Assembly: GCA_963760265.1 (NCBI GenBank) | Contig: CAVXCR010000029.1 | Coordinates: 46,779 to 110,778, forward strand | Length of the DNA stretch: 64,000 nucleotides | Source of the DNA: Terriglobia bacterium | Lineage (GTDB): Bacteria; Acidobacteriota; Terriglobia; Terriglobales; Acidobacteriaceae | Reading direction: 5' to 3' | Shown here: positions 4,710 through 30,975 of the stretch, in pieces | Numbering within the stretch: the first letter of the stretch is position 1 | Layout of the letters: each line of letters begins with the position of its first letter | Translations under genes and position numbers: made by a program | Notes under the pieces: generated by a model | The model's database searches: none | What the model was told of the DNA's origin: nothing | Seen by the model: the letters and a program-made list of their open reading frames with translations, nothing else

Positions 4710-4713
4710 GGCG

Positions 4714-5582: not shown

Positions 5583-5656
5583 TGCCCCCTCGTTCAATGG
5601 TAGGACAGCTGACTCTGGATCAGCATATCGGGGTTCGAATCCCTGGGGGGCAGCCA
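5583..5656 (+). tRNA. tRNA-Gln (anticodon CUG)
   Basis: Hand-folded cloverleaf: acceptor TGCCCCC/GGGGGCA, D arm GTTC-AATGGTA-GGAC, anticodon arm GCTGA-CTCTGGA-TCAGC, T arm CGGGG-TTCGAAT-CCCTG, then G-CCA. 74 nt. Confidence 0.9.
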
Positions 5657-5658
5657 AA
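5613..5658 (+). repeat. att-type direct repeat, copy 1 (3' half of tRNA-Gln plus 2 nt)
   Basis: CTCTGGATCAGCATATCGGGGTTCGAATCCCTGGGGGGCAGCCAAA recurs identically at 17715-17760 and 30904-30949. Confidence 0.9.
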
Positions 5659-5754
5659 ACAAGCTAAACCGTTTACCGCGCATTCCGCGAAACCCTCGCT
5701 GACGCCAGTGTGGTGGAAAATGTGGGTACCGATAACCCACGTGGAAGCGGCCAA

Positions 5755-6993
5755 ATGGTGAAAAACAGGTCCAAACCGGCCACCCCGGGAGTTCAGTACT
5801 CAAACCGCACCGGCCAAACAGAGCGGCCAAACAGGACAAAAGGTGCGGCCAAACAGGACAATTCAGGTCACGTCCCCGTAGCACAGAATGACTCGCTTTC
5901 GGCCGGCGAAGCCGCACGGGAGCTTGGTATTTCCGTGCGCACTTTGCGGCGCCTCTGTTCCATCGAGGGACTCCCCAGCTTCAAAACTCCGGGTGGACAA
6001 ATCCGTGTGCGGCGAAACGACGTTGACGCGTATCGCCAGGGAGCGGTTACTCAGACTGCGCCGATCGCGGGTGTTTCATCCGGTATCGTTGAGAGCAAGC
6101 GCGAGTCGGTGCAGGCGCTCAATCTGGAGGTGCAGGAGCGTCGCGTTAAGCGTGAACTGAAAAGGTTCGACGACGAGGATGCTGAAACTGAGCGCCGGCG
6201 CGAGACTTCGGACCGTATTGTTCTCGAACAGTTGCGCTTGCAACGCGAGCGCGAATCGCAATTGCGCGAGCAGGAACAGCAGAGAGCGGCGGCGGCCCGG
6301 CAGCGCAGGCAGTGGGTGGATGGGTGGATGCAATTTGCGCTTCAGTCGATTCCGCAGGACGCTCCACAGGACGTTGCCCTCGATGTACGGCAAGCTGTCG
6401 AGGAGACTCTCGAGGATCTTGTGCCGACGCAGCCACAAAGTGTTGTGCAGCGCCTGGTGCTCGCTGCAGTTGAAAGAGGGTTGAAGCCTTGGAGACGGCG
6501 CCAGGAAATCGAGCGCGCGTTTCGAGAAGCTCGGAAGCAATTGCCGGCACTTGCTCGGAGCATTATTCCTGAGATGGGCTCTGAGTTGACCGAATGGGAG
6601 ACGCGCGCGACCCAGGCAGCGCGTCAGGCGATTAGCTGTTTATCGGCCGATGCTTCGTTCGAAGAGATACGCGCAGCCGCGGTCGAAGCGGGAAGGCGAA
6701 TTGCGGCGGACTACCAGGCCGAGCAGGACCGAGCCCAAGCAGAACGCGCCCGGCAACAGCGCGAAAGCACCAAGAAATTCCTGATTGATTTTGGCGCGCG
6801 GGACGTATTTTTCTATTTGCAAAAACTGAGATTAGACGGGGAACTGTGGGACGAGGACCTGGAGCGGAAAACCGAACTAGAGCAGGCAGTCCGCAGCAAG
6901 CTGGAAGGAACGCTCGCAGGCACAGAGGGCTTTGAGGCTGTGCAGCGCATGGCTCGTGCAGTTGTGGATTCCGAGCTTGAGGAGGAGGTCTAA
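5755..6993 (+). CDS. excisionase-family HTH protein with a long charged coiled-coil C-terminal region
   Basis: SAGEAARELGISVRTLRRLCSIEGLPSFKTPGGQIRVRRNDVDAY, then E/R/Q-rich helical sequence. The ATG at 5755 was chosen because the upstream part of the ORF overlaps repeat motifs. Confidence 0.6.
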   Translation: MVKNRSKPATPGVQYSNRTGQTERPNRTKGAAKQDNSGHVPVAQNDSLSAGEAARELGISVRTLRRLCSIEGLPSFKTPGGQIRVRRNDVDAYRQGAVTQTAPIAGVSSGIVESKRESVQALNLEVQERRVKRELKRFDDEDAETERRRETSDRIVLEQLRLQRERESQLREQEQQRAAAARQRRQWVDGWMQFALQSIPQDAPQDVALDVRQAVEETLEDLVPTQPQSVVQRLVLAAVERGLKPWRRRQEIERAFREARKQLPALARSIIPEMGSELTEWETRATQAARQAISCLSADASFEEIRAAAVEAGRRIAADYQAEQDRAQAERARQQRESTKKFLIDFGARDVFFYLQKLRLDGELWDEDLERKTELEQAVRSKLEGTLAGTEGFEAVQRMARAVVDSELEEEV

Positions 6994-6998
6994 CCGAA

Positions 6999-7364
6999 GT
7001 GTTGCAGAGCAGAAGTTTGTTGCACACGAAGATTCGCCAGGCGCGGCGGGAAGTGGCAAAGAGAATTGAACGTGAACTGTCTAAGCTCTTGCTCGACTCG
7101 GGACGCGGTTACGATGAGATGCGTGTGCGTCACCCTGATTTCTTGGTGTTCCTGATCGCTCAGAAACACGACCAGGACCGCGTGCCGTTGGGTGACTTGA
7201 ACGAGTCCGAGATCATTCTGAAGGACGCGCTAAAGGAGTTGCCGGCGCACAGTCAACATCTTCGAGCTCTGGCAAGGGCATTTGTGGCGGCACAGTTTCA
7301 CGTCTCACCGGGCGCCGTCGCTAAAGACCTGTCCGTCCGTAAGCCGCGCAAAACCGGCTGCTAA
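6999..7364 (+). CDS. hypothetical protein
   Basis: 121-codon ORF with a GTG start 3 nt after the preceding stop, co-oriented with its neighbours. No recognisable motif. Confidence 0.4.
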   Translation: MLQSRSLLHTKIRQARREVAKRIERELSKLLLDSGRGYDEMRVRHPDFLVFLIAQKHDQDRVPLGDLNESEIILKDALKELPAHSQHLRALARAFVAAQFHVSPGAVAKDLSVRKPRKTGC

Positions 7365-7406
7365 ATAGTTCCTGTAATTTTCTCCCAAAATTCCATCAAC
7401 GTTCCC

Positions 7407-8156
7407 ATGGAGTACCGCGCTTCTCCGATCCACAATTGCGATATGTCACCGTTGATCAGAATCCACAATCCGTCACCACCGCGCGAGAGCAGACGGAAAA
7501 ACTTCTTTGGGTTTTCGGCTGGCGAGCAGGCGATTGATGCTGCTATCGCTGGAAAGAAACCGAGCGCAAAAGCTCGCGAATGGATGCGGGAGCACGGTGC
7601 GACAACCAAGAAGTTAAAGAAGAGCCTGCGGCGCTCGATGCAGGCAAGGAATCCGCGTCGCCCAAAGGAACTGACGCGCGATGAAGTTGCGCAGCGCCAG
7701 GACCTAGCGGTTGCATTCACAGCCAACGTCTTGGGCGATGAAGAGTTAGCCGACGAGTTGGACGGGCTGACTGTGGACGAGTATGCGGATCGGCGCGGAC
7801 TTCAATTGACGAATCCTGCCAAAAATCAAGGAGTGAAACGTATGGCGAAAAAGCAAGACGTTGTGAGCAAGCTCGACGAGCTGATTCAGACCATCAAGGA
7901 GCGCCGCCCGAACCCACCGGCACCGACCGCATCGCCGACTGTAGCGCCGGCAACCGGAGCGCCGCCGGCCGCGGTGATGTCGGCCAGAAAAAAGGCGTCG
8001 TCAGATGCTCCAGATGACGACGAGCGCGACGATCTGGTCAACACGATCGCTGAAATTCAAGAGGCCCTCGATGAAGGCCGAGTGGACCGCGCCCAGGAAA
8101 TCGCCGATGACATCCTCGACGAGTACGAGGAAGAGGAAGAAGAAAGCGACGACTAG
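7407..8156 (+). CDS. hypothetical protein with a strongly acidic C-terminus
   Basis: 249-codon ORF with a basic N-terminal half, a P/A-rich linker and a DDILDEYEEEEEESDD tail. Confidence 0.45.
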   Translation: MEYRASPIHNCDMSPLIRIHNPSPPRESRRKNFFGFSAGEQAIDAAIAGKKPSAKAREWMREHGATTKKLKKSLRRSMQARNPRRPKELTRDEVAQRQDLAVAFTANVLGDEELADELDGLTVDEYADRRGLQLTNPAKNQGVKRMAKKQDVVSKLDELIQTIKERRPNPPAPTASPTVAPATGAPPAAVMSARKKASSDAPDDDERDDLVNTIAEIQEALDEGRVDRAQEIADDILDEYEEEEEESDD

Positions 8157-8281
8157 CCTTGGTTGCGGTGCGGCTCTTTGATCGGGTCGCACCGCAACGC
8201 CCAAGGACGCAGTCGGGCACTCCCGTGTTTTTCCGGGACAACCTGGCGCAGACGAAAGGCCCCGAAGAGAGGGTCCCAAGA

Positions 8282-9458
8282 ATGACATCGAGAAGTGCAA
8301 GCGCAGCGGTACTGATCTTCGTTCTCGCCATGGCGTCTCTGGGGGCGCCGCGTGCGAGCGCGCAGTTCATCGGCTACACCTCGCCGCAATCGGCGCAGCA
8401 GAAAGTATTTTCCGGGCAAACGACGGCGCAGACAACGCCGGTTGCTACTGTCTCCTGCACGCCCGTCAACGGTACTCCGTGTGGAATTCCGAACATCGGG
8501 CAGACGGTGCACTTCCTGACGTACACCGTAGCCGGCAGCGCGACAGCGATTCAGATCCGCTTGGAAGGAAGCTCTGACGGCAGCATCTGGAGTCCGATTT
8601 CCGATGATGCAACCGACCTGACCCAGGGCGAGGTAGTGGCAGTCGGATACTATCCAGCACTTCGGGCGAATCTGGTGACGTGCGCCGGCTGTGGCGGCGG
8701 GGTGACGCTCACGGCAAACTATTCCGGTGTTTCGGCATCGCCCAGCGTTCCTTTCGGTTCATACAATCCGTCGCAGCAGTTTCGTAAAGTCCTGTGGACG
8801 CGACAGAACTGCTCCGCGAGCCCGAGCATCTCGCAGGTCGTTTCACCTTATGGGTCTACCTACGGAATGCTGATCCTGTTCTCAACCGGCAGCACTGGTG
8901 CAAGCCCGAGTTTTCATGTTACCCAGCATACAGGCGAGACGAGTGCAGATGTCTTTGATCCGACCGTCGCAAGCGGACTCGCTGGTTTACTGGACCTCAA
9001 TCGTTCCCCCTGCGCCTTCGACGGCTGTGGATGTCAGCTACACGGCTGGGGCCGGAGCCTCTGGCCTGTGCAGCGCCACTTATTTTTTTTATCCGCCAAA
9101 CAGCTTTCTGCCGGCTACTGGGCAGCCCCCCACGACAACAAATCAGCAGTCAATCTCAGCCGTCAATGCGAGCGTGGCAATCACTGTGGGTCCATCTTTT
9201 TCTCAGCGGGCACATTTGTATTCCGTTTCAGCCCGTTGTTCAGCTGGCACCGCAGGGCTAACTGTGACGGATTTTGGCACAACGATTTGGAGCAGCGCTG
9301 CCACCGAGGTGGGCACGACTTCATTCAACAAAGCTTGGAATCCTGGACTGGCTACGGCCCTTACCAACACTGCTCTTGGGGGAACGATGGTGGTGACGCT
9401 GACGACGTGTGGCGCCGGCAACACTGGCACCTTGGACGTACAGGCAAGTGTGTTCTGA
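8282..9458 (+). pseudogene. secreted Ser/Thr/Gly-rich protein, frame-shifted near 8980
   Basis: Signal peptide MTSRSASAAVLIFVLAMASLGAPRASAQ. Protein-like sequence continues to ...DPTVASG in one frame and resumes as SLVYWTSIVPPAPSTAVDVSYTAGAGASG...TLDVQASVF in the +1 frame (ORF 8898-9458). Confidence 0.6.
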
Positions 9459-9638
9459 GTCTCTGTCGAGCGACTCAGGCGGGAGTGGCAAGAAGGGAAG
9501 ATCAAGAAAGTCTCGCGGCGAGCGTACCTGGAACGACTCGCGGAGCGGATCGGCTACGATTGGCGCTGGCTTAATTATGACGAGGTGGACCAGGTCTTTC
9601 GCCGGCGGTGAAACGAGAGATTAGAAAGGTGAGGGCTA

Positions 9639-9938
9639 ATGAGAACCAACAGCTACTTCTCGCTCCCTACGGTTTCGGATTCTTACGGGCGCGTGCGGGC
9701 GATGCGACCGAGCACAATCGGGTACATCGGCCAGGATGAAACGTCGGCGCCGGTCGATTTGTCGCTGCTGTTCCCTGGCCTTGCATTGCTGGCCATCGGG
9801 ATGTTTTTTCTCGGCGGAAAACACGAACCGCAGCGCAAGTTAAGACGAAGTGCCAGGAAGCGCAAAGAAGAGGCTCGCGAACTTCGCAAGCGCGCAAAGG
9901 CTCTCGAAAGCGAGTCGGGAATTTTGGGATTTATCTAA
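9639..9938 (+). CDS. small membrane protein (one TM helix, basic tail)
   Basis: AGGTGAGGG RBS, hydrophobic stretch LSLLFPGLALLAIGMFFLGG, then a K/R-rich tail. Confidence 0.45.
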   Translation: MRTNSYFSLPTVSDSYGRVRAMRPSTIGYIGQDETSAPVDLSLLFPGLALLAIGMFFLGGKHEPQRKLRRSARKRKEEARELRKRAKALESESGILGFI

Positions 9939-10224
9939 GGGCGTCGCCGCCAGCGCGCAGCGGACACTGAAATGGCGGATTGGCTGCAACGGCCGTGACA
10001 GCGAGAAAATTGCTGTAGTGCAAAGTCATACAAAAGTCGTTTGGTACGGCGATTGCGATGTGCGCCTTTTATCCGCGCTCTCATGAGTTCGCCTGATTTC
10101 TCCGGTTTTTCTCCGTCTGACGTTGTAGTGCAACGTAATACATCGCTCGTTTCCAGAAAATTTATAGTTGTTCGTTCGGTGCGCAGTTCGCTGCTAATGT
10201 CGCGTCCAAAGGGGGAGACGAAAA

Positions 10225-11190
10225 ATGGACGCAACAGCATTCGCGCAGCTTCCTTTCTCTGACGCTTTCAATCTCTGGCTGTCAAGCCGCGTGCGCATCG
10301 CGCCTGGAACGCGCCGCGATTACCAGAACGATTTTCACCGGCTCTCGCCTTTTCTTGGACATGTTCGCTTGCGGGAAATCACGATTGACCACATCAATCG
10401 ATACCGCGCTGATCGTGCTCAAAAAGCAGGTCCTAACCGGATCAACAAAGAACTGAACCTACTTTCCCAGATCATGCGACGCGCTGGCGTGTGGGCGCCG
10501 ATTGCAGATTGGTACGAACCTCTGCCGCTGCCGAGATCTCGCGGCATTGCTCTGGAGCCGAAAGAAGAGGCGCATCTGTTTCGCCTGGCTGCCAGCCGGT
10601 CTCGCTGGATTGTCGCCTACTGCTGTTCGCTTATTGCGCGCAACACCTGTGCCTGTCCGGGTGAGCTGCGCGCGCTCACCTTGGCCGACTTCGATACGAA
10701 GAACTGCACCTGGATTCGCATCACCAAAGGAACGAAAAACAACTTCCGCGTCCGCTCGCTCTTCTGCAACCAGGACGCACAGTGGGCGCTTCGTACGCTG
10801 TACGTCCGCGCGCTAAAGAAGGGCGCCCACCTGCCGCAGCACTATCTCTTGCCGCACCGCGGCCCGGACGTGCATCGACCGATGTACGGCTGGCACAAGG
10901 CATGGAGCGCACTCCGGGCGGAAGCCGCGAACAAGTTTCCCCGACTCGCCCGGCTCAGGTTCTACGACTGCCGGCACACGGCATGTACTCGGATGCTGGA
11001 GAATCCAGAGATTCCTTACGGCGCTATTGAAGCGATGATGGGCCACGCAATCAATTCTCAGACGAAGCAGCTTTATTTTCACATTCGCAATGAGACGCTT
11101 GAGAAGGCAGCACGAGCGCTGTCGAGTGGTCACTACCAGAAGTTCGGACCGGGCACTAGCGGGAGAGTAGTCAGAGTTGGTGCTGCGTAA
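10225..11190 (+). CDS. tyrosine recombinase/integrase (possibly catalytically impaired)
   Basis: C-terminal box FYDCRHTACTRML...MMGHAINSQTKQLYFHI (R-H...H...Y). The position normally holding the first catalytic Arg reads TCACPGEL (Cys, TGT at 10654). Confidence 0.8.
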   Translation: MDATAFAQLPFSDAFNLWLSSRVRIAPGTRRDYQNDFHRLSPFLGHVRLREITIDHINRYRADRAQKAGPNRINKELNLLSQIMRRAGVWAPIADWYEPLPLPRSRGIALEPKEEAHLFRLAASRSRWIVAYCCSLIARNTCACPGELRALTLADFDTKNCTWIRITKGTKNNFRVRSLFCNQDAQWALRTLYVRALKKGAHLPQHYLLPHRGPDVHRPMYGWHKAWSALRAEAANKFPRLARLRFYDCRHTACTRMLENPEIPYGAIEAMMGHAINSQTKQLYFHIRNETLEKAARALSSGHYQKFGPGTSGRVVRVGAA

Positions 11191-11368
11191 AACGCGGGAG
11201 GTAAATCGCCAAATGAAAACTCCAGGTCGCTCCCAAACACCCAAAAGCAGGCGCAGTTCACATTCGAATCGAGCGCGGCCGCGGCGAGCGGTTCGCGTGC
11301 GATCCCTCAAAACTCGTTCCGGTACCTGCAGCGCTCACACCCTACGCGCGCGTGTGTTGCGGAAGGTG

Positions 11369-11530
11369 ATGGCCTGGCACCCGGACCAGGAGGACAAGAT
11401 TCTGATTAGCAAACTTCACAAGAAACTCGGTTTGAAGCCGTCTGAGATTTTGCGCCGCAGTGTGCAGCTCCTCGCTGAGGACCTGGGGTTTCAGAGAAAG
11501 GGATTGCGCCCGCGGCCGTTTCGTCGATAA
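11369..11530 (+). CDS. small putative ribbon-helix-helix-like protein
   Basis: The ATG at 11369 has a GGAAGG RBS. Product MAWHPDQEDKILISKLHKKLGLKPSEILRRSVQLLAEDLGF... Confidence 0.35.
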   Translation: MAWHPDQEDKILISKLHKKLGLKPSEILRRSVQLLAEDLGFQRKGLRPRPFRR

Positions 11531-11595
11531 TCAAAAGGGGGTCAGTATCTTGCGACGGGAGTTCCACAAAATGAAGGCTGACAAGAGCAGGCGTT

Positions 11596-11862
11596 CTAAG
11601 AATCAGATGACTGTTTCGGAATCCAGCGCTTCAGGGCCTGAACTACTGCAGCAAGGGCTTTCTGCTCTTCAGGACCTGGAGAACACGCCTGTTCGACCTG
11701 TCGAATCTGTTCTAGAAAACTTACTACTTCATCGTGGCCTGATCCGACAGCTCGAATCGCCATACAGCATTTCAGAACATCAATGGAAACGGTGAGCGTG
11801 TTGAGTTTATTGTGCAGTTCTAGGATAGCGGCCGTGAGTTGCGCGAGTTGCTGTTCTGTCAT
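11596..11862 (-). CDS. hypothetical helical protein, translationally coupled to the upstream zinc-ribbon gene
   Basis: 88-codon ORF whose start overlaps the stop of 11859-13019 by 4 nt. Confidence 0.45.
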   Translation of the reverse strand: MTEQQLAQLTAAILELHNKLNTLTVSIDVLKCCMAIRAVGSGHDEVVSFLEQIRQVEQACSPGPEEQKALAAVVQALKRWIPKQSSDS

Positions 11863-13019
11863 TGTGCGGCTCTTTCCCCCGCTAGGAGTGGGGCGCGATC
11901 TCGAACGTCACGGCTACGTTGTTCTGCGCGCCTCCGGTGCTGCGTAAGAAGTACGACGCCATTCGGCAGTTTCCAAACTGTTTTGTGCCGGCACTCATAT
12001 CTCACAACGACGATTTCTTTCGCGGGGAGGGAAGGCGTCACACACGCATCGATCTTTGCTCGGATCGCGGAAGGGACCCTTGCTCTAAAGCGGCGGTATC
12101 TGTGCAGATCAATTCGCCACGAGATCATCGTGTCTCCCTTTCGGCATATTGGGCGATTGTCATCCGCACGTGGGCCGCCGAGTTTCAGAGAGAAAAATCG
12201 ACCGAGTGATACGTCGAAGTAAAACACTCTCGGCTTCTTACAATCGCCCTTACAGCGAACCCTGATGAGTTCTCGCGGGACTCCATTTACCAAGCCCAGA
12301 TGTTTTCCGTTAGCGACTGTCTTGCCATTGCAGTGGGGGCACGTTCTGGCTTTGGGTGGGAGATTGCTGAACCGGCCGCGATGTTCGAGGTCCAACACCG
12401 CTTTTCCGTTCAGGCACTTCAGTCGCCTGCGGTAGTTTCGGCACTTGTGATTGAAACACCGAAAAATGTTGTAGGTCGTTCCCGTTTCGGATCCACGGTA
12501 GTGATGAGTATATTTTCCACCAGGAAGGCACATTCCCCCGCACTCAGGGCACCACACCCAGCCGTGGCGTCTTTCGTATGATGTTTTTACTCGCCGTCGC
12601 AGAGGCAGCAAAACTTCTTTCTGGGTGTTCGGATTCTTCGCGGCATCGAGCGGCTGCCATTCGGTTTCATGGGGCAGGATGCCGAAGCTGACTACCTGAT
12701 GCCGGCTTCCCGTCGTTCCTGAGCAGGTTGCGTGATCCTTCAGCCGGCCGTGGAACCAGTGCTTGAGATAATCGGATCTGAGCCTGGGGCGTGCGCCACA
12801 GCGTGGGCAAACTAGTTGAGTGACGGTCTCTTCATCCGTTGTTCTCTTTTTGCCTGCCTCCTGCCTAGTCACCTCCGCTATTCCTTGTTCGAACATGTAG
12901 GGTAGCGGCTTCTTGCTGCGAGAGTACGCAGACAGCCGCGAAGCAGAGCACTTAAATCTCTTCGCCGCCTCCCGTAAGCTGTATCCGAAGCGCTCGCAAA
13001 ATTCGAGAATCGGATTCAT
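11859..13019 (-). CDS. orphan HTH plus multi-zinc-ribbon protein
   Basis: The ATG at 13019 has a GAAGGTGG RBS. N-terminus MNPILEFCERFGYSLREAAKRF... Cys pairs CPRC, CPEC(GGMC), CFNHKC, CPHC and CKGDC are spread along the protein. The region is visibly lower in G+C. Confidence 0.6.
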   Translation of the reverse strand: MNPILEFCERFGYSLREAAKRFKCSASRLSAYSRSKKPLPYMFEQGIAEVTRQEAGKKRTTDEETVTQLVCPRCGARPRLRSDYLKHWFHGRLKDHATCSGTTGSRHQVVSFGILPHETEWQPLDAAKNPNTQKEVLLPLRRRVKTSYERRHGWVWCPECGGMCLPGGKYTHHYRGSETGTTYNIFRCFNHKCRNYRRRLKCLNGKAVLDLEHRGRFSNLPPKARTCPHCNGKTVANGKHLGLVNGVPRELIRVRCKGDCKKPRVFYFDVSLGRFFSLKLGGPRADDNRPICRKGDTMISWRIDLHRYRRFRARVPSAIRAKIDACVTPSLPAKEIVVVRYECRHKTVWKLPNGVVLLTQHRRRAEQRSRDVRDRAPLLAGERAAQ

Positions 13020-13103
13020 CCGTGCACCACCTTCAGACGGATTATGCACATCAAATCCATTCAGAATCAAGAGAAGTCGTATTTTATTGTCAAGAAATCT
13101 TTT

Positions 13104-13120
13104 TGTGCATATTCTGCACA
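13104..13120. promoter_or_regulatory. candidate operator palindrome in the divergent promoter region
   Basis: TGTGCA-TATTC-TGCACA lies between the divergent zinc-ribbon gene and the XRE gene. Further TGCAC words occur nearby. Confidence 0.3.
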
Positions 13121-13290
13121 GACTCGGCAAGCAGTGCCGATTTGTCTCAAATCGCTATCGCGAAACCCGCATTTTTTGCGGGGTGCGTTCAACTTAGACG
13201 TAAAGAGAACCGCATCGCGACGAGCTGCTGCTCTACAGCTGTCCCTCTCGCGAGTTGTGCACATTTTCTTGTGCTACAACAAATTGCACG

Positions 13291-13913: not shown

Positions 13914-13921
13914 ACGCTTTA

Positions 13922-22863: not shown

Positions 22864-23094
22864 GGCAGCTTAGAGTACTCCTACAGAGTATTGGTTGCAG
22901 ACCATTTGCCCGTAGGTCCATCAGGTCTCAATGTCCAATTGCTTGACCTTGGTCCTGGCCACGCTGTTGTGATTGGTTCGGCACGAATGTGGGCCCGGTT
23001 TTCTGACACGCTCGGGCGTGCACGCGGGATTGTGGCAGCGCGAACAGTATTGCCGGTTGGTCTGGTCAGCGCATGCAACGGAACGGTGGCGCTT

Positions 23095-23737
23095 TCATGC
23101 CAAAAGGTAAGGCATCTCCCGCAGAAGAAACCGTTTAACCTCGTCCCACTCAAGCGATACCAGCATGTGGGGCATCGGGTCCTTTTCGGTATCCTCAAAA
23201 AACGTCAGTGACTTGAGAATGTGAAGCCTGTTGTACCGGGTTTGACTGTACTTTCGGTCAAAGAGTTCCAGGAGATCGCCAAGGCCGAACTGCCGGGCAC
23301 ACACGTAGAGGTCCACGAAATCGCGCTTGGTACCGCGACTCGCAATAGCGCTCACTTTCATGCACGCAATGTCGCGCGGATCAGCTATGGCAACATCAAG
23401 GAATCGGGTAGCGGGAAACAGCACGGGGTAATCGTAGCCAAGGAAACTCACCTTTGTCTTTTGGATCGTCGTATGCAGCGAATGCGGCGCTCTGGCGACA
23501 AGGGAAAACCCAGCCAACGCCTGGACACGCTGGAGGAGTGTTTCCTCATCGAAGAGATCGGCCGCAAAAAAGTCTAGATCCTGAGACAGCCGGTGGCCGA
23601 AGTGAAGGGCAAGCCCCGTCCCGCCGGCTGAGGTAAAAGCTGTCAAGCAGTCTGGCGTGAGAAAGGTTGCGGAGCGTTACTTCAGTGGAGGCGGTGATCA
23701 CCTCGCGGTGCCATACCCCAGATTCATGATTGGTCAT
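23095..23737 (-). pseudogene. AbiEii/AbiGii-type nucleotidyltransferase toxin, single-base frameshift near 23629
   Basis: Frame A ends ...HARLLDSFYL and frame B continues AGGTGLALHFGHRLSQDLDFF... Removing one base restores LLDSFYLAGGTGLALHFGHRLSQDLDFF. Confidence 0.75.
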
Positions 23738-23772
23738 GGCAGTTTTCTTTCTTTGATGAAAGAAGAATTAGG

Positions 23773-24039
23773 TTAGCGGCTCAGGTTGAGCGCCGCAACC
23801 TCGTGGAATGGAACCTTGTACAACAGCGCCCAGAAGTTGGCTGACTTTCGCGACAAACGGCCTTCCGTGCAGAGCACCCTTCGGATCTCGGACTCCGAAA
23901 AGGTCTCTCGCAACCACGCAACTGCCGGCCCGTCCCCGTACTCCAAGACCCGGTAGATCGTGTAGTCGGGATAGGCTTCTGGCTTGAAGTTGTCAAGGTT
24001 CGCGTCCCAGAATAGTGTCTGTAAGTGACTGGGAATCAT
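23773..24039 (-). CDS. small conserved protein upstream of the AbiEii-type gene (DUF6922-like by recollection)
   Basis: LFWDANLDNFKPEAYPDYTIYRVLEYGDGPAVAWLRETFSESEIRRVL...SANFWALLY. Confidence 0.55.
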   Translation of the reverse strand: MIPSHLQTLFWDANLDNFKPEAYPDYTIYRVLEYGDGPAVAWLRETFSESEIRRVLCTEGRLSRKSANFWALLYKVPFHEVAALNLSR

Positions 24040-24182
24040 ATTGTTACGAGTATAAGGGATGGAGCGTATAAGTCAACTCCACCCTCTGCGAGTATGGCGC
24101 GAAGCAGGCCTGCCAGTTCCTTCCTCCCCTTGCAGAACGCCGGACCGCCAACTACACCGCCATACTCGAAGGGGTTCTTCAT
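24036..24182 (-). pseudogene. N-terminal fragment of an AAA/ATP-binding protein (48 codons)
   Basis: MKNPFEYGGVVGGPAFCKGRKELAGLLRAILAEGGVDLYAP... stops before any Walker A motif. Its TGA overlaps the next ATG. Confidence 0.5.
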
Positions 24183-24354
24183 ACTCCTTGTTACACTTGA
24201 TGTTTACCGCAATCGTACGACTGTAAGCCGTTGAGGAGGTATTCGTCGATCAGCCGTTCGAGAATGGCGCCATGCGGGGGATCCCTCTCTCTTGTGGCCA
24301 AGGGATAAAATGACTATTATGACCATAATCTCTTGATCCTTGAGGAGGTAAGCC

Positions 24355-24609
24355 ATGGGCACGCATACATGGACCGTGGCAGAGGCCAAGGCAAAACTCA
24401 GCGAGTTGATCGACAAGGCGCAATCGGAGGGGCCGCAAAGAATCACCAAGCACGGTCGCACGACGGCGGTGGTAGTTGCGGCACAGGAATGGGAGCGGAA
24501 GGCCAAGCGCAAGGGCAATCTGGCCGCGTTCCTAACGGCATCACCACTTCGGGGCTCCGGGATACGGCTCAAACGTCTCCCAATGCACCTGCGTAAGGTC
24601 GATCTATGA
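24355..24609 (+). CDS. Phd/YefM-type antitoxin
   Basis: WTVAEAKAKLSELIDKAQSEGPQRITKHGRTTAVVVAAQEW, with a 4-nt ATGA overlap with the toxin. Confidence 0.8.
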   Translation: MGTHTWTVAEAKAKLSELIDKAQSEGPQRITKHGRTTAVVVAAQEWERKAKRKGNLAAFLTASPLRGSGIRLKRLPMHLRKVDL

Positions 24610-25025
24610 CTTATCTGCTGGACACCAATGTCATTTCAGAGCCTACGAAGCCACAGCCAAACGCAGGCGTGCTCGCTTGGCTGGCTGGGATTGACGAGGA
24701 CAGCGTTTTTATCAGCGTGGTAACGATCACCGAGCTACGCCATGGCGTTGAACGCCTTGCGGCTGGCGCCCGGCGCAAACGACTCGATGCCTGGTTGCAG
24801 CACGACTTGCCGCTGCGGTTTGCGGGAAGAATCCTGCCGATTGACGCCGTGGTAGCGGATGCGTGCGGAAAGCTTGTCGCCCGCAGCGAATCCCTGGGAC
24901 GCCCGATAGAGCCCCGGGATGCCTTCATTGCTGCCACTGCAGAGGTCCACGGTCTGACTCTCGTTACCCGCAATGCTTCTGACTTCCAGCCGACAATAAA
25001 AGCCATCGTCACACCTTGGACCTAG
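24606..25025 (+). CDS. vapC: PIN-domain toxin (VapC/FitB-like)
   Basis: MTYLLDTNVISEPTKPQPN..., ...DAFIAATAEVHGLTLVTRNASDF. Confidence 0.85.
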   Translation: MTYLLDTNVISEPTKPQPNAGVLAWLAGIDEDSVFISVVTITELRHGVERLAAGARRKRLDAWLQHDLPLRFAGRILPIDAVVADACGKLVARSESLGRPIEPRDAFIAATAEVHGLTLVTRNASDFQPTIKAIVTPWT

Positions 25026-25188
25026 CACAAATCGCCGGAGGGATCGAAGGTCCACCGCCAGCGACGGTGCGTGTTTAGCAAAGCTCACCATAGTTGCAAG
25101 CTATTGAGCGGGTGCGCCTCCTCAAAAATGGGGCGCATTCATAGTGCTGGGGGACGGCCGATCAAAGTGACCATTCGCGGAGGCGGAA

Positions 25189-25413
25189 ATGGAAGGACGA
25201 AGTCAATCCAAGTCGTCCCGGGATAAGGTCAGAGCGCATCGCCAGCGGCTGCGTCAACAGGGCTTGCGGCCTATCCAGATTTGGGTACCCGACATGCGGT
25301 CGCCTGCTTTTGTGACAGAGGCACACCGGCAGTCCCTCGCGGTCGCGAAAAGTCCCCGCGCCAAGCAGGATCAGGACTTTGTCGATGCTGTTTCTGGTTG
25401 CGGCGCAAAGTGA
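25189..25413 (+). CDS. MazE-family antitoxin (DUF3018-like)
   Basis: VRAHRQRLRQQGLRPIQIWVPDMRSPAFVTEAHRQS, with a GTGA overlap with the downstream toxin frame. Confidence 0.7.
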   Translation: MEGRSQSKSSRDKVRAHRQRLRQQGLRPIQIWVPDMRSPAFVTEAHRQSLAVAKSPRAKQDQDFVDAVSGCGAK

Positions 25414-25768
25414 AGCGCGGCGAGATCTGGGCCGTTGCGGGCGGTTAGGATTATGCGGGAAAGCCCCGTCCCGTTGTGATCCTTCAAGACGATCGTTTCG
25501 ACATGACGAATTCAGTCACGGTGTGCGCATTCACTACCGACCCAGCCGATGCTCCTCTGTTTCGGCTGCCTTTCGAGCCGAGCGAGGGCAATCGCCTGCG
25601 CACTGTCTGCCGATTGATAGTGGATAAGATCACGACCATTCCGAAGGCAAAGACGGCGGGCGTGTCGGCCGCCTTGCTGACGAAGATATGGTGCGGCTGA
25701 ATCGTGCCGTTCTGGTCTTCTTGGGCATCGCTGTCCCACCCAACAACCAGCAACTGGAATCGGCATAA
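25410..25768 (+). pseudogene. PemK/MazF-family toxin inactivated by an amber stop and a frameshift
   Basis: VKRGEIWAVAGG-TAG(25446)-DYAGKPRPVVILQDDRF...LIVDKITTIPKAK, then a frame change near 25655 into GGRVGRLADEDMVRLNRAVLVFLGIAV... Confidence 0.75.
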
Positions 25769-26188
25769 GGTCTTCCCTCTGCCACGCCGACAAGTCTCTC
25801 GCTTGAAAGGTGAGGCCAGGCAGCCTAATGAATGGAGCTGAACGGTTTCTTCTGGGTGTGACTGAGTTAGGTTTGGCCCCGCTCCGAACACCCAACCACG
25901 AGTCACCTCCGCAAAGTCGATCCGTTGTGGTTTCTGGACGTAATTACCAGAGGGCTCGCGTGCTCCGCATAACGGCCGCGGCCTGCGCATAGCAGCTCAG
26001 GTCTTCCCATACCAGCTTCTGAGCCCACTCCCTTCACGTTCGTAAGCCTTCACACCCGGAACGTCACCGCAAACATCAGACCGTCCTCCGAGGGCCAATA
26101 GCCAAGGGCGTTTCTTCTTGAGCTCTGATTGTCTGAATACGCGCCTGTGCCTTCACGTTCCACTTCCCACATTCGAGGTATTTTTGCC

Positions 26189-27163
26189 ATGAAAGCATCT
26201 GCGATCTTCGCCGCTCTCCGCGCACTTGTCTCCACACGGCAACCCGTCTTTATCTGGGGTGGGCCTGGTATCGGCAAATCCTCCATCGTCGACCAACTAG
26301 CCAGCTCCCTGAATCTTTCTTTACGAGACCTTCGCGCCCTGCTGCTCGATCCAGTCGATCTCCGAGGACTGCCTTATGTCGAAGACGGACGATCGAAGTG
26401 GGCCGTTCCCGACTTTTTGCCAAGCGATGGCGAAGGAATCCTGTTTCTAGACGAGTTGAACGCCGCTCCCGGCATGGTGCAGGTGGCGTTCTACCAACTC
26501 GTGCTGGACCGCAAGCTGGGCGAGTACACGCTCCCGGACGGCTGGGTCATTATTGCTGCCGGAAACCGGGAATCCGATCGTGCCCAGACCTCACGCATGC
26601 CCACGCCCCTGCGGAATCGCTTCGTTCATCTCGATTTCGAAGTCGATCAGCAAGAGTGGTCGGAGTGGGCGATCAATAGCGGCATACGCCCGGAAGTGAT
26701 TGCCTTTATCCGCTTCCGGCCCCAACTTCTCAGTGTTTTTGACCGGGACGCCAACGCCTTTCCTTCCCCGCGTTCCTGGCAATTCGTCTCTCGCATCCTG
26801 AATTGCGGTCCAGACAGCAGTGTCGAGTTCGAACTGTTCGCGGGCGCCGTGGGCAACGCAGCGGCAACCGAGTTTTGCGGATTCCTGAGGATGTTTCGCG
26901 AGCTTCCCAATATCGACGCCATTCTGCTCAATCCGACCGCCGAGCCTGTTCCCGAGTCGCCTGCGGCGCAATATGCGGTCGCATCGGCGCTGGCGCACCG
27001 GGCTTCCGATACCAATTTCGATCGGATCTGCCTCTATCTGGATCGGATGGCAACGGAGTTCCGGGTATTGTGCGTACGCGACGCCACCCTCCGCGACCAA
27101 AGCATCAAGCACACCGCGGGATACACCCGCTGGGCCATTCAAAACCATCACGTCCTGGCATAG
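26189..27163 (+). CDS. MoxR-like AAA+ ATPase (AAA_5 type)
   Basis: Walker A WGGPGIGKSS, Walker B ILFLDELNAA, and ...IIAAGNRESDRAQTSRMPTPLRNRF. Confidence 0.8.
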   Translation: MKASAIFAALRALVSTRQPVFIWGGPGIGKSSIVDQLASSLNLSLRDLRALLLDPVDLRGLPYVEDGRSKWAVPDFLPSDGEGILFLDELNAAPGMVQVAFYQLVLDRKLGEYTLPDGWVIIAAGNRESDRAQTSRMPTPLRNRFVHLDFEVDQQEWSEWAINSGIRPEVIAFIRFRPQLLSVFDRDANAFPSPRSWQFVSRILNCGPDSSVEFELFAGAVGNAAATEFCGFLRMFRELPNIDAILLNPTAEPVPESPAAQYAVASALAHRASDTNFDRICLYLDRMATEFRVLCVRDATLRDQSIKHTAGYTRWAIQNHHVLA

Positions 27164-27352
27164 TTGGTTCAAACGTTCGCTCCCATTGCTGGCATCACCG
27201 GCCGGCCAAATCCGCGGGTCATGTCGATTCCGGAAAACGGTCCGCAAGCTTTGGAAGCGGTTATTCTTTCGAAGATGTGCCCTGCATGGGAAGTGCTGTT
27301 GACAGGCACACGATGCCAACCGTACAGTCTAATTATCTGAACTGGAGAGTTT

Positions 27353-27631
27353 ATGAGCGACAGCATAGTCGTCAGTGCGTTGCATTTGCGTGCAAATCTC
27401 GGCAGGTTCCTTCGCCGGGTAGAGGATGAGGGCCGGTCCCTTGTCATCCAAAAGCGGGGTAGTCCGCGGGCCGTGCTGCTCAGCATCAGGGATTATGTGC
27501 GTCTCGCGGTTCCCGAACCCGACGTCCTTCAAATCATCGGCAAAGAATCCAAACGCAAGGGGACTCATAGACTCAGCTCGAAACAGATCGACCAAATCGT
27601 TAAAGCCGCCCGCCGATCGAAGAGCCGATGA
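27353..27631 (+). CDS. Phd/YefM-type antitoxin
   Basis: ALHLRANLGRFLRRVEDEGRSLVIQKRGSPRAVLLSIRDY, with a 4-nt overlap with the toxin. Confidence 0.75.
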   Translation: MSDSIVVSALHLRANLGRFLRRVEDEGRSLVIQKRGSPRAVLLSIRDYVRLAVPEPDVLQIIGKESKRKGTHRLSSKQIDQIVKAARRSKSR

Positions 27632-28050
27632 TCCCGCTTCGGCTCGTCCTTGACACGAACGTTGTTGTGTCTGCGGCACTCAAACCTGAAGGGCTACAGC
27701 GAACGGTACTGTTGCTCGCGATTACCAAGCCAGCCCGGTTGTATGTTTCGGATGCCATTGTGTCGGAATACTCTACGGTCCTGGCGCGCCCTGAACTCAA
27801 GATTCGATGGGGCCTCCGGCAACAATTCCTTCACCTGATCAAGAGCCATTCTCGGGTTGTCGTTCCATCGCGCTTGCCTGAAGTTACAACGGATCCCGCT
27901 GACAACATCTTTGTTGAATGCGCTGATGCCGCCCGCGCCGACTACCTGGTGACCGGGAACGAACGTCATTTCCCGAAGTTCTGGAAGAGCACCAAAATCA
28001 TCAACTCACGTGAGTTTCTCAACATCATAGGTCCCCACCTCATTAAGTAA
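27628..28050 (+). CDS. PIN-family toxin component
   Basis: LVLDTNVVVSAALKPEG..., ...DPADNIFVECADAARADYLVTGNERHF. Confidence 0.8.
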   Translation: MIPLRLVLDTNVVVSAALKPEGLQRTVLLLAITKPARLYVSDAIVSEYSTVLARPELKIRWGLRQQFLHLIKSHSRVVVPSRLPEVTTDPADNIFVECADAARADYLVTGNERHFPKFWKSTKIINSREFLNIIGPHLIK

Positions 28051-28214
28051 ACGCCTCACGAGCGGCGGCCCCCGGCCGATGCTGCACGGTCCCAGAAGAC
28101 TACCGCCACTGCGCCGTTTCTCGACTCTTCTTCTGATCACGACACTGAGACGACATCGGCCGCCGAACGCCAAATACAGAACGTTACTGACCCGTTCCCA
28201 GCCCCTGATTACGC

Positions 28215-29514
28215 ATCACTGCTGTCCGGCTAAAGGAGGAAGTGCCGACCGCAAGTGATGGGCAGAGGGTGAGTTGAGTCCGTTCCGGGCTTGCCGCGAT
28301 TTGAAAGCGAGGAGAGCAGACAATGGCTCATGAATCAGGGCCGCACCGTCTTCTCGCAATTGATCAGCTTCCTTCCCGACCGGGAGTTTCGCCGTTGTGT
28401 CGAGCGCTATCAGGGCGACATCCGGCTGCGAGGATTTTCCTGCTGGGATTAGTATCTGGCGATGGCCTTCGCGCAGTTGACCTATCGCGAGAGCCTGCGT
28501 GACATCGAGGCCTGTCTGGGTTCGATGCAGAGCAAGCTGTACCACCTGGGATTTCGCGGCAAGGTGGCGCGCTCGACGCTGGCCGACGCGAACGAATCTC
28601 ATGATTGGAGGATCTTCGCCGATTTCGCGCAGGTGTTGATTGGCATCGCCCGGCCGCTGCATGCTCGCGATCCGATGGGCGTCGATCTGCAGCAGAGTTT
28701 GTATGCTCTGGATTCGACCACGATCGACCTGTGCCTGTCGCTGTTTCCGTGGGCGAGGTTTCGCCGGCGCAAGGCCGCCGTCAAGATGCACACTCTGCTG
28801 GACCTGCACGGCAACATTCCCACGTTTATCCGCGTCACCAGCGGGGATGTGCATGATGTGAACCTCCTCGACGAGATCCTGCCGGAGGCGGGGGCCTTCT
28901 ACGTGATGGACCGGGGCTACATCGATTTTCAGCGGCTCTTCGTGTTTACGCTCAGCTCGGCCTTCTTTGTCGTGCGCACCAAGTCGAACGTGCTGCTCGA
29001 ACGGCGCTACTCGCATCCGGTGGACAAGAGCACGGGCGTGCGCTCGGATCAGACGGTGATTCTGGCGTCGTTCGAATCGGCCTCGGTCTATCCGGATGCG
29101 CTGCGGCGTGTGAGTTACTTCGACACGGAGACCAACCAGTGGCTGAAGTTCCTGACCAACAACTTCACGCTCCCGGCACTGACCATCGCGCAAATCTACA
29201 AGTGTCGCTGGCAGGTGGAACTCTTCTTCAAATGGATCAAGCAGCACCTGAGAATCAAGGCGTTCTATGGGACCAGCGAGAACGCGGTGAAGACCCAGAT
29301 CTGGATCGCGGTGTCGGTGTACGTGCTGGTGGCAATCGTGCGCAAGCGGTTGGAACTGAACGCCAGCTTGTATCAAATTCTACAGATTCTCAGCCTCACG
29401 CTTTTCGAGAAAACGCCCATTTTATGCGCCCTTCAGGCCATCGATGAGGACGCCAGTTTCGCCAAAAACGTCAACCAACTGATTCTCTTCGAGTTTTAAC
29501 CGGACAGCAGTGAT
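28215..29514 (+). mobile_element. IS4-family insertion sequence (~1.3 kb)
   Basis: Terminal inverted repeats ATCACTGCTGTCCGGCTAAA (28215-28234) and TTTAACCGGACAGCAGTGAT (29495-29514) match 19/20. A single DDE transposase frame lies inside. No clear target duplication was seen. Confidence 0.8.
28330..29499 (+). pseudogene. IS4-family DDE transposase with in-frame amber codon at 28450
   Basis: MNQGRTVFSQLISFLPDREFRRCVERYQGDIRLRGFSCWD-TAG-YLAMAFAQLTYRESLRDIE... and ...YKCRWQVELFFKWIKQHL... The TAG sits where related transposases have Gln (CAG). Confidence 0.8.
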
Positions 29515-30135
29515 TATTTTCGACTTCTTCTCCAATTCAGCTCTTGTTTTGTCTCTCTCCTGCAAGTAGCGATCTCTCTCCTCGCTGGCACGGTGCAGTT
29601 CGACTTTGAGCGCCTCCACACCCGAATCAACCGCAGACATGGCGGTCCCCTGTACGGCAGCTTCGATCGCGCGGTTGCAGCCATCGATGTGATCGTTGTA
29701 TTTCTGGATCGCTTGTTTTGCGACGTCCCGCGAGTACTGGTCGTGGTTGTATAGATCCGCCATCATTTCCGCAGTGATCCACATGGTGCGCCGGTGATCG
29801 ATCCATTGCTTGGCGTACAGCACCGTCACCATCAGCAGCGCAATCGTTACACCCAAGCTGTACTGGAAGTACGGGTTCCGCGCGCTAGCATCCAAAAAGG
29901 CCCGGCGTCGTTGTTCCATCCAGTATCCGTAGTCCAGATTGTCGGGATTGAATTGCTTGAGCAGGAACTCGTACCAGGTGTCACGGCGGTGATACAAGGG
30001 TCGAGCGGGCTGCACGTGCGGTTGCGCTTGCCGTGGGCGAGACTGCGGTCGTTGTTGCGCCGTTGCAGGACCAGTGCTCACCAGCCACAGCGCCGCGAGC
30101 ATGACCATTCCGATCGTCTGTTTCATATGCGCCAA
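29422..30135 (-). CDS. signal-peptide/TM coiled-coil protein whose 3' end now reads into the IS
   Basis: MKQTIGMVMLAALWLVSTGPATAQ, a TM helix LGVTIALLMVTVLY and a coiled coil. From 29514 downward the ORF is IS sequence (...SKII|TAVRLKLEE...). Confidence 0.55.
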   Translation of the reverse strand: MAHMKQTIGMVMLAALWLVSTGPATAQQRPQSRPRQAQPHVQPARPLYHRRDTWYEFLLKQFNPDNLDYGYWMEQRRRAFLDASARNPYFQYSLGVTIALLMVTVLYAKQWIDHRRTMWITAEMMADLYNHDQYSRDVAKQAIQKYNDHIDGCNRAIEAAVQGTAMSAVDSGVEALKVELHRASEERDRYLQERDKTRAELEKKSKIITAVRLKLEENQLVDVFGETGVLIDGLKGA

Positions 30136-30903
30136 CGTTCTTAACCACGGCGACCAACCGATTCGCCGCGGCCACCGTCGGCCACCTTTCGGGCGTGAAC
30201 ACTACACCGGAATCGTTTCTTTTGCATTCGCGGGCCATGCGTCTTTTGTAGAGTGAAGCACTAGGCCTGGTTTGTGGTCTGCTATCGGAAAAGCGGTGGC
30301 ACCGTGTTTCTGCTGTCAACGCGGAGAGTCTATATCAATGAGATGGACTCCTTTGCTGAAAGTGGGGCCTCTGAGGACTCTCTGGATCGTCATACTCGGC
30401 GCGCAGGCGAGGGCAGCACAAATATTTTCACCGATTACACATTGACTGGTCGGAGGCACCGGGATCGTCATTATCCGTGGGGCCAAAAATCGGCGCTCCC
30501 GGTTGCCGGAATGGGTCCATCCCATTAGGTCAACCGCTCCTGCATTTCTTCATTTTAGAGAGCGACGTGCATGTTCATGGTCCCTCCAGTATGGGGGGAG
30601 CTCGAACAATATTCGTGTTCTATTCGCTCTCGCGCGCCTTCCACGTGGGGTAGCTGATCGGCAATTAGCTGATCCGAGAAAATGCACTGAAAATTGTGCA
30701 GGAAATGCACTGAATGTGGTGCAAAATCGGTAACAGAACTCGGTAAACATTTTTTCGAATTTGACCTGTTTTTCTGGGTTAGTATAGGATGTCCGTAGTA
30801 GTTGCCAAGAGTTCCTCAATCCTGAGTAACCATTTCAAAAGAAAGGAGATCCTCTAGTAGCCAGTCAACCCGCAGGAACTCCGCTAAAGGTAAGTAGGGC
30901 AGC

Positions 30904-30949
30904 CTCTGGATCAGCATATCGGGGTTCGAATCCCTGGGGGGCAGCCAAA
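30904..30949 (+). repeat. att-type direct repeat, copy 3 (right end of the island array)
   Basis: 46/46 identical to 5613-5658. Confidence 0.9.
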
Positions 30950-30975
30950 AATCTACGCGACCACGCCACCGCTTG

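Follow-up and report, generated by a model that had tools for sequence, protein, structure and literature searches.

The accretion of integrative elements in tandem, by elements whose distantly related integrases have the same specificity, has been described, the cases including ICESt1/ICESt3 of Streptococcus thermophilus and, in Streptococcus agalactiae, IME_Sag2603_tRNAlys together with a decayed integrative and conjugative element (ICE) (PMC5704250), and the elements that accrete comprise ICEs, integrative and mobilizable elements (IMEs) and CIMEs; in IMEs, initiators of rolling-circle replication have been assigned a role in maintenance and/or as a non-canonical relaxase (PMC5704250). Here we analyse a stretch of 64,000 nucleotides (nt) from a Terriglobia bacterium (Terriglobales; contig CAVXCR010000029.1, forward-strand positions 46,779 to 110,778), called the window throughout, in which the 25.3 kb between the first and the third of three attachment site (att) copies very probably consist of two site-specific integrative elements, island 1 and island 2, that are unrelated to each other and lie in tandem at the 3' end of a tRNA-Gln(CUG) gene. 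Islands in tRNA genes are reportedly the subject of the work of K. Williams and of the Islander database, in which tandem islands at tRNA and tmRNA genes are said to be catalogued. In the pSAM2-type integrative and conjugative elements of actinomycetes, the gene order is rep-xis-int-attP and integration takes place in a tRNA gene.

When set against the described accretions (PMC5704250), the array has in common three direct att copies at the 3' end of a tRNA gene, two adjacent units with their own tyrosine integrases, a shared target despite distant integrases (Int364 of island 1 and Int447 of island 2 are 26 % identical; the value is below 30 % in the S. agalactiae case) and an incoming element that would have used the att site of the resident. 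It differs in its uncultured Terriglobales host, in being without recognizable conjugation or mobilization genes, and in having one core sequence at all three sites, not chimeric sites that differ in sequence. In comparison with tRNA-gene islands at large there is nothing fundamentally different: the identity block runs from the anticodon loop to just past the CCA, the tRNA is restored, an integrase lies by an att end, the composition is atypical, and one tRNA is used by several element types (prophage-like in the relative L002), although these integrase families and this cargo have not been described. The likeness of island 1 to pSAM2 is one of organization only. Island 1 has the order Rep, Xis (excisionase), Int (14554–17409, then the core at 17715), a rolling-circle-type Rep and the 3' end of a tRNA as target, but no FtsK/TraB-like protein was matched in Pfam or PHROG, its zinc-ribbon Rep is of an uncharacterized family with no plasmid match, and its host belongs to the Terriglobales and is not an actinomycete. 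With the IMEs that carry rolling-circle initiators (PMC5704250) it shares an integrase plus an initiator of this type, the form of a small integrative element and nearby toxin–antitoxin or defence cargo, whereas its Rep family is not Rep_trans, Rep_2 or PHA00330, and neither a coupling protein nor a helper conjugative element was identified.

Both islands are tRNA-targeting islands, with direct repeats containing the 3' part of the tRNA, an intact integrase beside an att site and an unoccupied site in a relative. Together they are, as far as the sequence comparisons indicate, a tandem accretion array, with three direct att copies and units that occur independently at the same site elsewhere, namely an island-2 variant alone in contig L093 and an island-1 type in the P0242 contig (the latter known from its gene list, not its DNA). 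As regards an ICE, neither island gave a match to type IV secretion, coupling protein or relaxase families (Pfam, PHROG, NCBIfam); as regards a prophage, no capsid, terminase, portal or tail genes were found with Pfam on the scanned open reading frames (ORFs) of both islands or with PHROGs on the island-1 genes that lacked annotation. The integration module of an IME is present, and the HUH Rep of island 1 might, by analogy, also act as a relaxase; neither an oriT nor a coupling protein was identified.

Tandem accretion at a tRNA gene is textbook material, and the value of the present case is descriptive, not conceptual. It comes from a little-studied phylum: the Acidobacteriota are a dominant, mostly uncultured phylum of soil whose mobile elements are poorly charted. 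The locus provides a fully delimited example, in which the att core is exact and the arms, two families of integrase, an empty site and an intermediate with a single island are all available. It could seed searches for such elements and for att-based genetic tools in Acidobacteriota, and it shows that within one lineage at least three types of element share a single tRNA-Gln gene as integration site. Its more unusual points are side observations: the link between the Rep and virus-like replicons that are circular and measure about 16 kb, and an integrase family without the first catalytic arginine (Arg-I).

Attachment sites, integrases and occupancy of the tRNA-Gln gene

The features that delimit the array, with their positions in the window, are as follows (aa, amino acids).

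5583–5656, + strand: intact tRNA-Gln(CUG), the integration target (ARAGORN).
5613–5658, + strand: att copy 1, attL of island 1, made up of the tRNA 5' half, the core and the island-1 P' arm (exact 46-mer).
5659–17714, + strand: island 1, 12,056 bp, carrying an integrase of the Int364 type together with a module for rolling-circle replication (found in neither L003 nor L093; low GC).
10225–11190, + strand: third tyrosine recombinase, 321 aa, in the island-1 cargo and not at an att end (Pfam Phage_integrase, E 9e-12).
16315–17409, + strand (ORF 16132–17409): island-1 integrase Int364, 364 aa, reading toward att copy 2 (Pfam Phage_integrase, E 2e-20, and SAM-like domains; length from P0241).
17715–17760, + strand: att copy 2, a hybrid site of island-1 P arm, core and island-2 P' arm (exact 46-mer).
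17761–30903, + strand: island 2, 13,143 bp, with an Int447-type integrase and toxin–antitoxin and defence-like cargo (absent from L003; 92 %-identical variant in L093; low GC).
17973–19316, + strand: island-2 integrase Int447, 447 aa, reading away from att copy 2 (Pfam Phage_integrase, E 3e-19).
30904–30949, + strand: att copy 3, attR of island 2, made up of the island-2 P arm, the core and the chromosomal flank (exact 46-mer).

A first-pass annotation of the window, made without database searches, had proposed two tandem integrative islands at tRNA-Gln on the basis of three identical direct copies of 46 bp starting at 5613, 17715 and 30904, and both the repeats and the islands are borne out. 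The 46-mer CTCTGGATCAGCATATCGGGGTTCGAATCCCTGGGGGGCAGCCAAA occurs at 5613–5658, 17715–17760 and 30904–30949, in each case on the + strand and with no mismatch, and was not matched once across 100 shuffles. It extends from 2 nt 5' of the anticodon through the encoded CCA and 2 nt further, its first 44 nt being the 3' part of the tRNA. The copies are spaced 12,102 and 13,189 nt from start to start, leaving 12,056 and 13,143 bp between cores, in agreement with the approximately 12.1 and 13.1 kb given earlier. That the 5' half of the tRNA accompanies the first copy alone also holds, the tRNA-Gln(CUG) called by ARAGORN overlapping no other copy. No fourth or degenerate copy was found on either strand when as many as 14 mismatches over the 46 positions, or 5 within one of the halves, were tolerated.

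The flanks of the three copies differ in a manner that identifies each junction. To the right of copy 1 the sequence is unlike the flank of the empty site in contig L003 (Terriglobales SPRUCE 72), while to the right of copy 3 it is this empty-site sequence; the left flank of copy 2 is like that in L091/L092, and its right flank like those in L088, L089, L090 and L093. The sequence of the tRNA itself is the same in the relatives L002, L003, L004 and L088. L003, which is about 94 % identical at the nucleotide level on both flanks, has the tRNA-Gln joined straight to the cupin gene and typA: its positions 7358–12985 correspond to window 1–5658 and 12927–13528 to window 30894–31489, the whole 25.3 kb being missing with the join exactly at the core. 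In the metagenome contig L093, window 4685–5658 is matched at 95.8 % and followed directly by window 17715–20705 at 92.5 %, which places an island-2 variant at an intact tRNA without island 1. L002, a relative at the 97 % protein level, has HK97-type capsid, tape-measure and P4-type integrase genes at the same tRNA, i.e. a prophage-like region. In the P0242 contig, for which the gene list was compared, the integrase is 84 % identical to that of island 1, a neighbouring isochorismatase-family gene resembles the one in the left flank of the window, and the island-1 backbone gene order is combined with other cargo (HEPN, HNH and an MmeI-type enzyme). We also considered L004 as an occupied site, but the gas-vesicle and regulatory genes downstream more likely represent a difference in chromosomal synteny. 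By these comparisons the tRNA-Gln site is polymorphic and, to judge from its occupants, host to several element types. The first-pass annotation had called for a search of relatives for an unoccupied locus, which L003 supplies, and had named conservation of the same 25 kb in relatives as the outcome that would speak against islands; L003 is empty, L093 holds the island-2 variant alone and L002 a prophage-like region.

Each of the two intervals has its own integrase at an att site. Int364 ends 305 nt before copy 2, and in L091/L092 the same P arm (…GTGACTTACAAGAAAGGCCGAAAAACGA) and the same core come after its 77 % homologue. Int447 starts 212 nt past the core of copy 2, and its homologues in L088 and L089 (78–79 %) start about 210 nt past an intact tRNA-Gln(CUG), with the same P' arm. 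The element of L089 is also found in L090, there behind a tRNA fragment and no complete tRNA, which implies a tandem or other non-first position. As each interval has an integrase of its own, and homologues of each lie beside the same core and arms elsewhere, the two intervals are separate units. Both integrases are full length relative to their own families and keep Arg-I, HxxR, His and Tyr. Furthermore, L091 and L092 are 99.98 % identical up to the last base of the core and unrelated beyond it, and between L089 and L090 the identity is 100 % starting 4 nt before the core, with unrelated sequence to the left. Such a change of partner exactly at the core, in near-identical elements from different samples, is population-level evidence of recent site-specific recombination by both integrase families, and bears on these families rather than directly on the copies in the window. 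IMG/VR viral contigs searched with Rep, Int364 and Int447 yielded no relatives.

The earlier count of three tyrosine integrases stands in so far as three Phage_integrase proteins are encoded, but the third, at 10225–11190, is from a non-canonical family without the canonical catalytic arginine. Among the 121 representatives of this family at E<1e-30, Gly or Cys occupies Arg-I and mostly Tyr replaces the His of HxxR (His-II), while Arg-II, His-III and the Tyr nucleophile are kept; as the loss of Arg-I is family-wide, it is not a private mutation of this gene. The region of this gene (Int321) was considered as a nested element, an idea that was dropped as no further degenerate att copy delimits it.

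Both arms of island 2, as well as the left arm of island 1, contain repeats.

5746–5856, + strand: four direct copies of CGGCCAAA(CAG) in the P' arm of island 1 (k-mer and direct-repeat analysis).
17815–17840, + strand: ACCGGTAACA repeat pair in the P' arm of island 2 (direct-repeat and k-mer analysis).
30677–30903, + strand: P arm of island 2, with AAATGCACTGAA twice and a CGGTAAC pair (direct-repeat analysis).

The CGGCCAAA(CAG) copies are candidates for arm-type sites or iterons. The P' arm of island 2 (GATTTCAAAAGACTTACCTTTCCGGACTTCCTG…) is conserved beside each Int447 homologue examined (L088, L089, L090, L093, L095). A pair matching ACCGGTAACA recurs in the P arm at 30727–30750, and GGTAACA pairs are present in L093 and L095 too; the ACCGGTAACA pairs are candidate arm-type integrase sites. 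The P arm also has a degenerate trace of the 5' part of the tRNA adjoining the core. Since both arms of island 2 have the CGGTAACA repeat pair and a 10-nt sequence inverted across the core, both ends belong to one attP.

Proposed formation of the array and alternative explanations

The arrangement can be accounted for by a known mechanism. Arrays built in just this way are described in a review (PMC5704250). Each element would carry the 46-nt core within an attP, and its tyrosine integrase would recombine this attP with the chromosomal match, an event that would rebuild the tRNA and leave a partial copy at the far end. Entry of a second element into one att copy of the first would then produce the order tRNA-core, island 1, core, island 2, core, two rounds giving B-core-P1' … P1-core-P2' … P2-core-B'. 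Because L093, which has the same chromosomal flank, contains an island-2 variant alone, island 2 was probably resident first and island 1 second, the latter having presumably entered the tRNA-proximal att site of the former. After excision, island 1 would probably exist as a rolling-circle episome, with its Rep, single-stranded DNA-binding (SSB)-like protein and candidate origin. It is plausible that both islands could still excise, because full sets of catalytic residues, Xis-type genes and perfect att copies are found together with near-identical relatives that break at the core; that at least one of them is competent for excision today we regard as slightly better than an even chance.

A number of points weigh against such an array of site-specific elements. 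No attP circular junction or excision product appeared in two junction-pattern scans of viral contigs, and a single metagenome scan gave integrated forms only. Searches with Pfam, PHROG and NCBIfam found transfer genes in neither island, and many addiction modules speak against present activity. There are signs of decay, namely an apparent frameshift in the cargo gene at 8282–9458 (possibly a homopolymer error) and an insertion sequence (IS; 28215–29514) whose ends, when inspected, showed no evident target duplication. For the island-1-type element of L091, no attL was found within 10 kb upstream, so that the limits of this type are defined in the window alone. Finally, the window comes from a metagenome assembly in which the copy-2 junction is without confirmation from a second assembly, the short Logan contig L096 ending inside the core.

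Much of this would be expected if the islands were fixed, decayed remnants, that is, immobile or cis-mobilizable islands in which the att sites and integrase genes persist, excision has ceased and the DNA has become a stable part of the chromosome. Relaxase, capsid and terminase genes are lacking from both islands along with transfer genes, no attP form was found, a cargo gene has an apparent frameshift, the IS without target duplication hints at rearrangement, and the five toxin–antitoxin-type modules would stabilize the DNA. We nevertheless consider this explanation unlikely. Both terminal integrases are full length with every catalytic residue kept, and Xis-type genes are present; moreover, copies 2 and 3, which are free of tRNA constraint, have no change in 92 nt whereas island-2 DNA differs by about 7.5 % from that of L093, and the near-identical elements with different partners across the core point to recent activity of both integrase families.

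It has also to be asked whether the 25 kb might be one composite element, acquired and moving as a unit by way of the outermost copies 1 and 3, with the middle copy a relic of an older accretion in another host. The nucleotide at position 47 from the start of the core is A in copies 1 and 3, which are therefore identical over 47 nt, and G in copy 2, and transfer of whole tandems is documented in other systems (PMC5704250; PMC13651849). However, this nucleotide in copy 3 is part of the chromosomal flank, where L003 has C; L093 has the same chromosomal flank with the island-2 variant alone, elements of the island-1 and island-2 types are separate in other genomes, and neither island has transfer genes with which to move the pair. 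A composite element is accordingly quite improbable.

That the array is an artefact of assembly, in which islands from different strains were joined through the shared 46-nt repeat, is very improbable even though the source is a metagenome-assembled contig (125,912 bp), other assemblies break at the repeat (L001 starts in copy 3 and L096 ends in copy 2) and strains with a lone island-2 variant exist (L093), as the repeat is shorter than the usual k-mers of modern assemblers, so that real reads would carry each junction, L090 independently has an island in a non-first position after a fragment of a tRNA, and each type of junction has an independent counterpart elsewhere.

L001, from the metagenome-assembled genome (MAG) GCA_049696215.1, is 99.6 % identical to the right flank and starts 4 nt inside att copy 3 (L001 1–45 corresponds to window 30908–30952). 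This start is as expected of an assembly-graph branch at the core and may reflect mixed site occupancy in that population.

Replication module of island 1 and related circular replicons

The recombination module of island 1 lies at its right end, where SSB-like gene, hairpin, HUH Rep, Xis, Int and att follow one another; a helix-turn-helix (HTH) regulator precedes them.

13255–13515, + strand: XRE-type HTH regulator (Pfam HTH_31, HTH_3).
13512–13913, + strand: SSB-like protein, 133 aa, ending in DDDIPF (its tail ITDDDIPF aligns with ITDEDIPF of a Pfam-SSB protein of L082).
13961–14026, + strand: imperfect hairpin 5' of rep (inverted repeat; DNA fold z = -2.56).
14554–15795, + strand: HUH rolling-circle Rep, 413 aa, with an N-terminal zinc ribbon (motifs and fold).
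15852–16082, + strand (ORF 15792–16082): Xis/AlpA-type HTH_17 gene, 76 aa (Pfam HTH_17, E 7e-9; 76-aa call in L096).

Judged from its motifs and its structure model, the island-1 Rep is an initiator of the HUH class, with the metal-binding motif, the catalytic tyrosine (YxxK) and a predicted HUH fold. Across 30 homologues the Cys cluster, H267-A-H269 and YxxK (Y317, K320) are invariant. A search of PDB sequences with the family profile gave chance matches only, which made a fold search necessary. With an AF2 model of pLDDT 84, the best Foldseek matches were HUH nucleases (MVM NS1, E 4e-4; RepB; circovirus and Vientovirus Rep), and among the top 34 a good share were HUH-type or related origin-binding domains of replication initiators, mixed with unrelated folds, with HUH at rank 1; the TM scores are low because one domain only matches. 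A member of the Rep family, P0101, gave a match to PF23343 (REP_ORF2-G2P) just under the cut-off, and the family, although large, is without annotation. When the Rep was compared with PLSDB plasmids by tblastn there was no match.

The neighbouring features are conserved to differing extents. Homologues of the SSB-like protein are 68 % identical in contig L087 and 31 % in the circular replicons L083–L086. The hairpin, a candidate double-strand origin, is kept in L087 with one compensatory change in the stem and a conserved CGCTTCTAGCYTA segment. Homologues of the XRE-type regulator are found at the equivalent position in L087 and L091, and a homologue of the Xis-type gene lies 5' of the integrase in L091; the latter gene is the candidate recombination directionality factor of island 1. 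In L087 (5554–6952) a 73 %-identical Rep stands in the same order of XRE, SSB-like protein, small ORF and Rep, and there the module is coupled to an unrelated 421-aa integrase beside tRNA-Ala(CGC). Evidently, different integration modules have become joined to one and the same replication module.

Proteins related to the island-1 Rep (about 50 % identity) and to the SSB-like protein next to it (31 %) are also encoded on contigs of 16–18 kb from many metagenomes (L082–L086). L083 (16,361 bp) has a terminal overlap of 127 bp, and L084 and L086 are circular permutations of it, which indicates a circular replicon of about 16.2 kb. This replicon has a long run of small ORFs on one strand, a protein with Ig-like domains (He_PIG) and a 253-aa protein with a match (E 1e-23) to a PHROG annotated 'terminase large subunit'. 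The 16–18 kb contigs have the appearance of small circular viruses, or of virus-like plasmids, from soil bacteria, in a family that is as yet undescribed.

Island 1 has the replication module of these replicons, i.e. the zinc-ribbon HUH Rep with the SSB-like protein, without their packaging ATPase and block of structural genes. One conceivable though doubtful explanation is that island 1 is an integrative satellite or plasmid-like relative of undescribed circular virus-like replicons, about 16–18 kb in size, of soil Acidobacteriota. If this were true, island 1 could be replicated, and perhaps packaged, at the expense of the circular replicons, and the tRNA-Gln array would be a meeting point of a virus-derived replicon and a defence and toxin–antitoxin island.

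Cargo, excisionase-type genes and chromosomal flanks

The remaining genes of the two islands and those of the right flank are listed below.

5755–6993, + strand (ORF 5710–6993; start inferred): island-1 backbone protein with an HTH_17 N-terminus and a long charged coiled coil (Pfam HTH_17, E 3e-11).
6999–9938, + strand: island-1 cargo without assigned function, comprising 121-aa and 249-aa ORFs, a secreted beta-rich protein (8282–9458) and a 99-aa membrane protein (ORFs).
19395–20482, + strand: three small conserved genes after the island-2 int (all three kept in L093).
20929–22863, - strand: radical-SAM protein with an N-terminal zinc ribbon, cargo (Pfam Radical_SAM, E 9e-21, and Zn_ribbon_HMPTM).
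23095–23646, - strand: AbiEii (Pfam; weak in PADLOC).
23773–24039, - strand: DUF6922 (Pfam).
24355–25025, + strand: Phd/PIN pair (Pfam).
25189–25413, + strand: MazE-like gene (Pfam).
26129–27163, + strand: AAA_5 (MoxR-like) ATPase (Pfam).
27353–28050, + strand: Phd/PIN_3 pair (Pfam).
28215–29514, + strand: IS with a DDE_Tnp_1/DUF4372 transposase and 20-nt terminal inverted repeats (Pfam, inverted repeat, ends inspected).
30976–31422, - strand: cupin gene, right flank.
31530–32247, - strand: TumE/HVO_A0114 pair, right flank, of low GC, between the cupin gene and typA.
32333–34159, + strand: typA, right flank.

Island 1 has a backbone in common with L091/L092 that consists of the HTH_17 coiled-coil protein, the XRE-type regulator, the N-terminus of the SSB-like protein, Xis and Int. 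The coiled-coil protein matches phrog_66, 'excisionase and transcriptional regulator', and has homologues in L091 and, as a 437-aa HTH_17 protein, in the P0242 contig. The cargo that follows at 6999–9938 has no match in Pfam, PHROG or PADLOC; within it, the secreted beta-rich protein is split over two frames, the apparent +1 change falling in a C5 run near 9003; a pseudogene and a homopolymer sequencing error are the two possibilities. In L091 (11224–14558), a gene with a RelA_SpoT domain lies between int and att.

In island 2, the first of the three small genes after int (19395–19799, 134 aa) is 48 % identical to L088 11461–11820, which encodes a protein matching HTH_17, and is the candidate Xis of this island. 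The first-pass annotation had listed four HTH genes of Xis/AlpA type across the array. Three of HTH_17 type are found (the N-terminus of 5710–6993, 15792–16082 and 19395–19799), but no fourth; there is one XRE-type HTH gene as well, and a search of ten further small ORFs gave none of Xis type. Its toxin–antitoxin modules, Rep gene and IS were all recovered, as two Phd/PIN pairs, the MazE-like gene and AbiEii/DUF6922, the HUH Rep and the single IS at 28215–29514. Applied to the island genes without annotation, PHROGs and PADLOC gave almost nothing beyond HTH, generic radical-SAM (pVip-model) and weak AbiEii matches, the matches of the radical-SAM protein in PADLOC being at the generic pVip level only. 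A 237-aa ORF on the - strand (29422–30135) extends into the right end of the IS, an overlap that suggests an IS-mediated deletion or gene disruption.

The L088 element has SLT and CagX(VirB9)-like genes (14808–18801), suggesting a conjugative element. On this ground island 2 was considered as a decayed ICE and the idea rejected, as the window shares only the integrase and the first downstream gene with L088. The relatives in L091 and L088 have quite different cargo, and integration modules appear on this comparison to be shared across element types.

The array stands out in composition, with a GC content of about 0.54–0.62 across 5–33 kb versus about 0.64–0.67 in the immediate flanks. The left flank encodes GAPDH, a kinase, an ADP-forming acyl-CoA ligase and an isochorismatase-family hydrolase, and the nearest genomes with this acyl-CoA ligase are MAGs of Terriglobia/Terriglobales. 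The right flank encodes the cupin, the TumE/HVO_A0114 pair, TypA and a trehalose-phosphate synthase-like protein. The earlier statement that core genes resume after copy 3 is correct for the cupin, but the TumE/HVO_A0114 pair, which is absent from L003, precedes typA. In L003 the region of this toxin pair (window 31490–32320) is represented by about 18 nt; the difference is a separate small indel outside the att-bounded array. The cupin beside att copy 3 has 79 % protein identity to its L003 counterpart, compared with 93–98 % for TypA and the next gene, and divergence from L003 is thus locally raised beside the integration site. Towards the far end of the window, at 63090–63165, there is also a tRNA-Ala(CGC) gene.

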